A DNA stretch of 64,000 nucleotides from Alphaproteobacteria bacterium (GCA_037146715.1 JBAWWO010000002.1:7377-71376), one strand, 5' to 3'. Shown: positions 598 to 756, numbered from the stretch's first letter. Program-made: numbers and translations. The notes: generated by a model from the letters alone, not told the origin.

Positions 598-756
598 TAC
601 TAGCTTTTTTGGAAAAAAAGGGAAGGAAAAAAATACCCCTCTATTGCTTTCCTCGGGCGTGCCCCAAGGATCCACACCTTACTTCTTGGGCTGCGCCCTG
701 AAATAGCTGGATCACGACGTCGGACTACGTCCTCCTCGTGATGACGGGAATGGGGC
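598..756. repeat. Mosaic palindromic interspersed element, family B copy
   Basis: A/G-rich head, then the 'cccctctattgctttcctcgg' module, then 'agctggatcacgacg...cgtgatgacgg' inverted repeats. The same modules recur at about 21981, 42395-42745, 55849 and 63484. Confidence 0.5.

Follow-up and report, generated by a model that had tools for sequence, protein, structure and literature searches.

Palindromic repeats 3' of genes in an alphaproteobacterial contig: probable CGTC-tagged REPs in mosaic clusters

Genes and orphan proteins of the window

The window analyzed here, 64,000 nucleotides in length (positions 7377-71376 of JBAWWO010000002.1, GCA_037146715.1), is part of a 147,139-bp MAG contig; nothing in it supports the description of the source as a small genome in the first-pass annotation. 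The window is gene-dense, has a GC content of about 43%, encodes proteins with accessions of the MEI83206xx series and locus tags beginning with WCG05_, and is also represented in Logan run SRR12676973. Its genes include those for type VI secretion, uvrA, pyrG, ribosomal proteins, and many orphan secreted proteins. The nearest homologs of the UvrA protein are 86% and 82% identical, and Rhodospirillales-like relatives follow at about 70%. Closely related strains are represented in JGI and ENA data by protein fragments with 90% identity.

The type VI secretion genes (tssE/gp25-like, tssC, tssB/VipA, and their neighbors) occupy positions 1040-6317 and, together with the many orphans carrying signal peptides, may reflect a host-associated or predatory lifestyle. 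One of these orphans, encoded on the minus strand at 16179-18062, is a 627-aa protein with a signal peptide and six tandem repeats of 105 nt (35 aa; …ITALAAVPA…); it has no match in Pfam or NCBIfam and looks effector-like. Two adjacent orphans, otherwise unrelated, share their first ~60 aa, comprising the signal peptide and a conserved stretch, which are encoded by a 179-nt sequence present at 23632-23810 and, 96% identical, at 24957-25135. A paralog search with ORF 24063-25136 in 5.8 billion proteins retrieved only these two genes of the window, and the 179-nt identity suggests recent gene conversion or exchange of an N-terminal module. Near the left end of the window, just downstream of the first repeat cluster, a 64-aa ORF on the minus strand (289-483) is preceded by a good ribosome-binding site and has no Pfam match; there is no long ORF in the 288 nt on its left. 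In the spacer downstream of uvrA, positions 42304-42388 form an inverted 85-nt copy (79% identity) of the 3' end (36767-36851) of an EamA ORF, which is itself just a 112-aa fragment (36517-36855); the copy is probably a gene relic.

The H1 hairpin family

Sensitive all-against-all comparison of the intergenic DNA of the window, together with multiple alignments, resolved one main repeat family, denoted H1, a unit of ~46 nt with the consensus CCCC..ATTGnnTTCCTCGGGCTTGrCCCGAGGATCCAt. The unit consists of an 8-9-bp stem (CCTCGGG/CCCGAGG), a CTTGR loop, a tail that is mostly CCA, and a decayed TGTC/TGNN tag, and is present in 12 full copies and 3-4 fragments. A covariance model (R1) trained on the 12 copies was run over the window without filters. 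The training copies scored 34-50 bits and the next best match 13.7 bits; the H1 family is therefore sharply delimited, and no strong match falls inside any confirmed coding region. The H1 copies, fragments, and one separate hairpin are as follows (R1 scores in bits).

636-681, plus strand: H1 copy, 45.8 bits; contains the 'cccctctattgctttcctcgg box' and a GGATCC tail
16020-16065, minus strand: H1 copy between convergent ORFs, 35.1 bits
16150-16180, plus strand: H1 fragment (right arm and tail), 13.7 bits, E about 0.1
21987-22032, plus strand: H1 copy, left half of an inverted pair with the tag ends outside, 47.1 bits
22042-22087, minus strand: H1 copy, right half of this pair, 33.9 bits
23997-24043, minus strand: H1 copy with a TGTC tag, 38.8 bits
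27573-27601, no strand assigned: separate perfect hairpin AAGGGGAAAGGATCCATTCCTTTCCCCTT, 13 nt past the stop of an MFS gene
27592-27637, plus strand: H1 copy with a TGTC tag, 38.4 bits; 9-bp stem GTCCCCGGG and 5-nt loop
39725-39770, plus strand: H1 copy with a TGTC tag, 48.5 bits
42584-42640, plus strand: two tandem H1 left arms without right arms (ATTGCCTTCCTCGGG, TTGAATTCCTCGGG), 9.9 bits
42631-42676, plus strand: H1 copy, 49.5 bits; core of 27-31 nt identical to Rhizobiaceae CGTC REPs
42708-42754, minus strand: H1 copy, inverted partner of 42631-42676, 48.2 bits
49208-49253, minus strand: H1 copy, 47.1 bits
52425-52455, minus strand: H1-like fragment, found by comparison and alignment
63478-63524, plus strand: H1 copy, left half of an inverted pair, 44.8 bits
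63544-63589, minus strand: H1 copy, right half of this pair, 35.5 bits

That these are interspersed palindromic elements recurring beyond chance, as originally proposed, is borne out: the repeat DNA at all eight sites first listed recurs elsewhere in the window. The list lacked three full copies (23997-24043, 39725-39770, and 49208-49253), and positions 598-635 and 42395-42528 within its spans are A/T-rich spacer, not repeat. In the window, the 22-nt 'box' CCCCTCTATTGCTTTCCTCGGG has two matches with at most three mismatches, against 0.00 expected; the 31-nt ccctcggg hairpin has two matches, against 0.00 expected; and the 7-mers CCTCGGG and CCCGAGG occur 9 and 8 times, respectively, against about 2.5 expected, a ~3.5-fold enrichment. 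The 'cccctctattgc box', the 'ggatcc palindrome', and the 'ccctcggg…cccgaggg hairpin', initially taken for separate modules, are a single H1 unit read on either strand. A GGATCC-centered palindrome as a module of its own was ruled out because this sequence belongs to the H1 tail and is not over-represented across the window: there are 16 GGATCC sites, against 15.5 expected, 6 of which lie within elements.

The predicted fold of H1 is conserved. RNAalifold returned an 8-bp stem with a loop of 5-6 nt; 93.8% of the stem cells in the alignment are paired, and compensatory changes occur in four of the eight pairs. None of 500 shuffles reached these pairing values, and pairing collapsed when the 3' partner was slid by one column. 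Mean column identity across the aligned copies is 57%, so the copies are fairly diverged, which suggests that the H1 population is old. The tag reads TGTC in three of the 12 copies (23997, 27592, and 39725) and TGCT, TGCC, TGAT, or TGAA in the remainder, and is preceded by a conserved AT-T; the first positions of the stem are TT or TC, not AT, the first stem pair being gone. The tail is CCA in seven of the 12 copies and CTA, TCA, CCC, or TCG in the others.

M3 hairpins and the 128-nt tandem unit

A second hairpin family, M3, is represented by three copies, and a ~128-nt tandem unit, separate from and unlike the hairpins, forms two arrays. The first 35 nt of this unit, denoted M5, also stand alone at two sites.

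705-755, minus strand: M3 copy, CGTC-ATCACGA-(18 nt)-TCGTGAT-CCA
42529-42577, minus strand: M3 copy, CGTC-ATCACGA-GCCCCGAAGGGGCG-TCGTGAT-CCA, followed by GCTTTTTC
55853-55892, minus strand: M3 copy, 7 nt past the rplI stop
55893-55943, plus strand: degenerate inverted partner (CGTC…CCA) of the M3 copy at the rplI locus, from folding and motif counts
755-1048, minus strand: ~128-nt tandem unit, 2.3 units, from self-comparison
52430-52700, minus strand: ~128-nt tandem unit, 2 units, ending beside the fabG-like TAA stop at 52698
42756-42792, minus strand: solo M5 piece, overlapping the uvrA TAG stop at 42782
63441-63475, plus strand: diverged M5 piece (74%), past the rplT stop at 63420

Read on the minus strand, M3 has the form CGTC-ATCACGA-(variable 14-18 nt)-TCGTGAT-CCA. 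In all three copies, CGTC directly precedes the stem, which starts with AT, and the tail is CCA; the outer stem comprises 7 bp around a self-pairing interior of 14-18 nt, which is itself a hairpin in two copies. One of these inner hairpins (42543-42557) is identical to the hairpin GCCCCTTCGGGGCTC of the H1-like fragment at 52425-52455. At the rplI locus, the M3 copy and its partner form a dimer with the tags inside, which folds into one long hairpin (-23.1 kcal/mol, z = -4.1) and supplies the sole AAAGCTGGAT…ATCCAGCTTT 'terminal inverted repeat' (TIR) of the window. The 'agctggatc…gatccagct' TIR, which had been listed as a recurrent module, is accordingly confined to 55852-55943, the outer ends of this one dimer. 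Comparison of M3 with plasmid sequences yielded nothing meaningful.

The 128-nt unit contains a long internal hairpin (GGAATTCC…GGTACC…GGAATCC), and a weak piece of it lies at 8432-8460. Searches of Rfam, plasmids, and genome and metagenome contigs returned no match to this unit. M5 or the complete unit accompanies hairpins at four loci, where it begins in or beside the stop codon of the upstream ORF (tssE, uvrA, fabG, and rplT), with the same polarity relative to that ORF in all four. In the 755-1048 array, M5 is the last 35 nt on the plus strand (1014-1048) and overlaps the TAG stop of the tssE-like ORF (1040). UvrA has its normal length of 942 aa, so that the M5 end merely overlaps the last codons of uvrA.

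Two Logan contigs, equivalent to 42763-52520 and 1008-2377 of the window, end exactly inside M5/128-nt repeats. Look-ups with exact protein sequences likewise returned only short Logan contigs that break in repeats, and the 343-aa concatenate of ORFs read through repeats had no match. In the closest relative, the contig carrying uvrA ends 59 nt past this gene.

Mosaic clusters at the 3' ends of genes

The repeats are grouped at 10 loci, all of which lie 3' of an ORF, in agreement with the original placement of the copies just downstream of genes; none of the nine divergent spacers in the window holds an element. Where no 128-nt unit intervenes, the loci lie 7-58 nt past the stop codon. H1 occurs as single copies at 636, 23997, 27592, 39725, and 49208. 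Inverted dimers whose tags face outward occupy 21987/22042, 42631/42708, and 63478/63544, with 9, 31, and 19 nt, respectively, between the model matches; the tags point inward in one of the four H1 dimers, 16020/16150. Linker motifs such as CCACGCCTTACTT interleave with H1, M3, and the 128-nt unit. With single copies, inverted dimers, truncated arms, linkers, and the 128-nt unit combined in this way, each locus is a different mosaic, and in five of them (636-1048, 21987-22087, 42529-42792, 55853-55943, and 63441-63589), repeats alternating in orientation and separated by variable linkers produce a BIME-like arrangement. This arrangement accounts for the earlier impression of shuffled modules: the loci are indeed mosaics, but the modules are not independent, three of the four being one ~46-nt H1 unit in both orientations.

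Individual loci differ in how the elements meet their neighbors. The fragment at 16150-16180 abuts the stop of ORF 16179-18062 and is 95% identical over 20 nt to 39745-39764. The copy at 23997-24043 lies 20 nt past the stop of ORF 24063-25136 and is followed by TATTTTTT. Half of the perfect hairpin at 27573-27601, AAGGGG(A/C)AAGGATCCAT, recurs at 52429-52445. The dimer at 63478/63544 is bounded by ATTGATT…AATCAAT.

Two H1 copies overlap called gene starts, both of them doubtful. According to Pfam-based gene assignments, the copy at 39725-39770 lies between lptC (stop at 39703) and lptA; its overlap with the called lptA start is probably a start-calling artifact, because a downstream ATG (39762), the probable lptA start, leaves the copy in the lptC-lptA spacer. 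The copy at 49208-49253 lies 57 nt past the stop of a Tim44-like ORF (49310) and overlaps the called TTG start of mltA, whose reading frame runs through it, so that this copy may be coding.

Relationship to CGTC-tagged REPs and other repeats

When the composite downstream of uvrA was compared with plasmid sequences by BLAST, stretches of 27-31 nt were matched with 97-100% identity by spacers, devoid of annotation, in replicons of Shinella and Rhizobium, at sites of the form CGTC-ATCCTCGGG-CTTGA-CCCGAGGAT-CCA that are arranged as inverted pairs. The multicopy CGTC-tagged REP of Rhizobiaceae reads CGTCATCCTCGGGCTTGACCCGAGGATCCA, and a 38-nt Shinella sequence of this kind has 482 occurrences across 180 alphaproteobacterial replicons, almost always in unannotated DNA. 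The R1 model, built from the window copies only, scores the Rhizobiaceae REPs at 24-41 bits (E 4e-10 to 5e-5). Based on the identity of the core with the Rhizobiaceae sequences and on these model matches, we assign H1 to the Rhizobiaceae CGTC-REP family as a diverged member, in which the tag has decayed and the first stem pair has been lost.

R1 also finds a degenerate inverted H1-like pair in GCA_048595075.1, the relative with the 86% identical UvrA, at positions 1385-1496 of contig L018. The pair follows nfu and reads CGTTCTCCTCGGGCGTGACCCGTGGATTGA and, on the other strand, CGTGCTTCCCCCGTGCTTGACACGGGGGGGG; its second hairpin retains the CTTGA loop and has a fully compensated stem. BLAST of the modules against the contigs of the relatives with 86% and 82% identical UvrA gave no match. 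Rfam searches at gathering and permissive thresholds (E up to 5) matched none of the elements, with two tRNAs as the only entries passing in the window, and a scan of viral contigs was negative. A search with TTCGCGAAGNNNTCGGCCAAAA of genome and metagenome contigs, among which the source MAG is not represented, returned only single chance matches in unrelated phyla.

Two superfamilies of REPs are distinguished by the unpaired tetranucleotide at one end, which is GTAG in the first and CGTC in the second (Di Nocera, De Gregorio & Rocco 2013, PMC3733652). Those of the CGTC superfamily are mainly alphaproteobacterial, small palindromes of 20-40 bp in many copies, with an unpaired CGTC (or TGTC/CCTC) at one end, an 8-9-bp stem starting with AT, a loop of 4-5 nt, and a tail that is mostly CCA (PMC3733652). 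They form dimers mainly with the tags outside, lie near ORF 3' ends between unidirectional or convergent genes, and in some cases extend over the annotated start of an ORF or contribute a stop codon; no dedicated transposase is known for them (PMC3733652).

The repeats of the window resemble these elements in several respects. The stem, CTTGA loop, CCA tail, and 3' flank CCCACGCC of H1 are those of the Rhizobiaceae repeat, and M3 agrees with the superfamily in its CGTC tag, in a stem starting with AT, and in its CCA tail. Copies are intergenic, near ORF 3' ends, and the dimers mostly have their tags outside; some copies lie where annotated ORFs begin, and some stop codons are provided by the ends of elements. 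The differences concern the H1 tag, which is TGTC in 3 of 12 copies and otherwise TGNN, with a stem that starts with TT rather than AT; M3, with its 7-bp outer stem and 14-18-nt interior as opposed to 8-9 bp and 4-5 nt; and the host, in the present case an unclassified alphaproteobacterial MAG of ~43% GC. We therefore consider it likely, with a probability of roughly 0.8, that the palindromic elements of the window are CGTC-tagged REPs of the type typical of Alphaproteobacteria, gathered in mosaic clusters 3' of genes. Their recurrence, the conservation of the hairpin through compensatory changes, the homology with known CGTC REPs, and the confinement to the 3' side of ORFs are observed in the present data; their role at the RNA level and their spread we infer.

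Other repeat families are less close. BIMEs of Escherichia coli and RIMEs, reportedly mosaic REP clusters of Rhizobium, likewise consist of alternating REPs with variable linkers and short motifs, so that every locus is another mosaic. However, the REPs of E. coli BIMEs are of the GTAG type with a cognate RAYT, and the clusters in the window additionally include the 128-nt tandem unit, for which no counterpart was found. The inverted doublets, which can fold as one long hairpin, recall the REPIN-RAYT system (Bertels & Rainey 2011, PMC3116915), but the spacers in the window (9, 31, and 19 nt) are not conserved, the tag is not GTAG, and no RAYT is encoded in the window; at the CCA end of H1, the corresponding tag reads ATGG, GTGG, or ATAG, its first base mostly not being G. 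The suggested kinship to REPs holds, and extends to Rickettsia RPE-4 and RPE-6 through their placement in the CGTC superfamily (PMC3733652). RPEs too are palindromic repeats in an alphaproteobacterium, but are noted for in-frame insertion within ORFs, whereas the copies in the window are outside confirmed coding regions. Integron attC sites were considered and dropped, as the neighbors are housekeeping genes in mixed orientation, with no integrase.

Mobility

Correia and ERIC elements are units of 100-150 bp with long TIRs, the former with TA duplications. Like the repeats described here, they are interspersed, intergenic, and hairpin-forming, but the unit in the window is a 46-nt hairpin without a regular TIR or target-site duplication (TSD). 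The direct repeat flanking the dimer at 22 kb, read in the first-pass annotation as a possible TSD, is real, with 10 perfect nucleotides (AAAGATACTC) at 21978-21987 and 22082-22091, but is isolated: none of the 12 other element or cluster boundaries examined has a flanking repeat of at least 8 nt. With a null frequency of about 0.005 per locus for a 10-nt flanking match, one such match in 13 tests is marginal (about 0.06).

This repeat is nonetheless a point against the identification of the elements as REPs, given that REP-type spread would not produce one, and it is the natural starting point for an alternative in which the elements are MITEs, that is, deletion derivatives of insertion sequences moved by a DDE transposase that recognizes their TIRs and makes TSDs. 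The 10-nt TIR AAAGCTGGAT at the rplI element and the ATTGATT…AATCAAT boundaries of the 63.5-kb dimer would fit the same scheme. We regard it as very improbable, considering that the TIR is present at one locus only (ATCCAGCT occurs once in the window) and that the units are not of fixed length and TIR-bounded but are 46-nt hairpins that also occur singly and in both orientations, with a core common to tagged REPs. Moreover, comparison of 57 ORFs of the window with Pfam or NCBIfam revealed no transposase and no Y1_Tnp/RAYT domain. With a flanking repeat at 1 of 13 boundaries and no transposase in the window, cut-and-paste movement of the MITE or Correia kind is unsupported. If the elements are CGTC-tagged REPs, their dispersal would instead have involved past copying as single-stranded hairpin DNA.

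It is also very unlikely, if slightly less so, that the loci hold something beyond a known REP family: either that the 10-bp duplication is a trace of CGTC-REP movement, or that the M5 piece or 128-nt unit followed by H1 and M3 hairpins constitutes an undescribed 3'-UTR cassette. In the latter case, the REPs would not simply have piled up passively; the cassette might, for instance, give rise to small RNAs from the 3' UTR or direct programmed processing or termination.

Possible role at the RNA level

From their position and from established facts on REPs, the elements would be transcribed within the 3' UTR of the upstream gene and fold into stable stem-loops, which would slow degradation by 3'-to-5' exonucleases and dampen read-through wherever they precede a T-run. 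REPs of E. coli have been reported to play such a dual role, as partial terminators and as 3'-UTR stabilizers of mRNA. Two biases in the window are weakly consistent with transcription into 3' UTRs: G·U cells in the H1 stem number 9 on the tag-to-CCA strand versus 3 on the other strand, and five of six single H1 copies are oriented along the transcription of the upstream gene, both biases being weak. Four or five copies of H1 and one of M3 are followed by a T-run, and these are the top terminator-like matches of their regions, although across the window scans, terminator-like sites are at chance level overall. Specifically, a hairpin followed by a U-tract is present for the H1 copies at 16020, 21987, 23997, and 49208 and the M3 copy at 42529, the others being without one; at 16020-16065, the stem is extended to 14 bp and followed by TTTTTC, yielding a terminator-like match. 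Given these biases, the T-runs, and the E. coli reports, the most likely role of the elements would be that of transcribed 3'-UTR hairpins that stabilize the upstream mRNA and, in some contexts, attenuate read-through. The terminator or mRNA-stability function suggested in the first-pass annotation is thus plausible and agrees with the literature on REPs.

The position 3' of ORFs and the T-runs after four or five copies, top-ranked in terminator scans, would also be expected of ordinary Rho-independent terminators that resemble one another through convergence on GC-rich hairpins and do not form a repeat family. About half of the H1 copies lack a T-run, however, and the CCA tail, the CTTGR loop, and the 5' ATTG/TGTC segment, which is unpaired, are conserved along with the stem. 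Both orientations are represented among the copies, as are truncated arms, and other alphaproteobacteria contain the 27-31-nt core at hundreds of sites. Furthermore, a canonical terminator of unrelated sequence, with a 14-bp stem and a T-run, is located on the plus strand at 46131-46170, after a small cold-shock gene (45903-46106), so that this organism uses ordinary terminators too. Convergent terminators thus appear to be a very unlikely explanation.

Equally remote is selection acting on the DNA itself, with the elements serving as binding sites of proteins (operator-like, or for nucleoid proteins, gyrase, or IHF) or as uptake-signal-like sequences. A palindromic core with conserved flanks has the appearance of such a site, and REPs and BIMEs are known to bind proteins (PMC2817692, PMC3333891). 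But the stem positions covary instead of being fixed, which selection for DNA recognition would not produce; the promoter-side (divergent) spacers are devoid of elements; and the G·U asymmetry points to a single strand.

Implications

Identification of these repeats as CGTC-tagged REPs would leave the known biology of REPs unchanged, but would extend REPs of this type, the core of which is nearly the same as in Rhizobiaceae, to an unclassified alphaproteobacterial lineage of lower GC content. There are practical consequences for the annotation and assembly of such genomes. The repeats may create spurious start and stop calls, in this case at lptA, mltA, tssE, and uvrA, and the Logan contigs that break within them indicate that they confound short-read assembly. 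For the organism, the repeats would mark 3' UTRs, which may tune expression.
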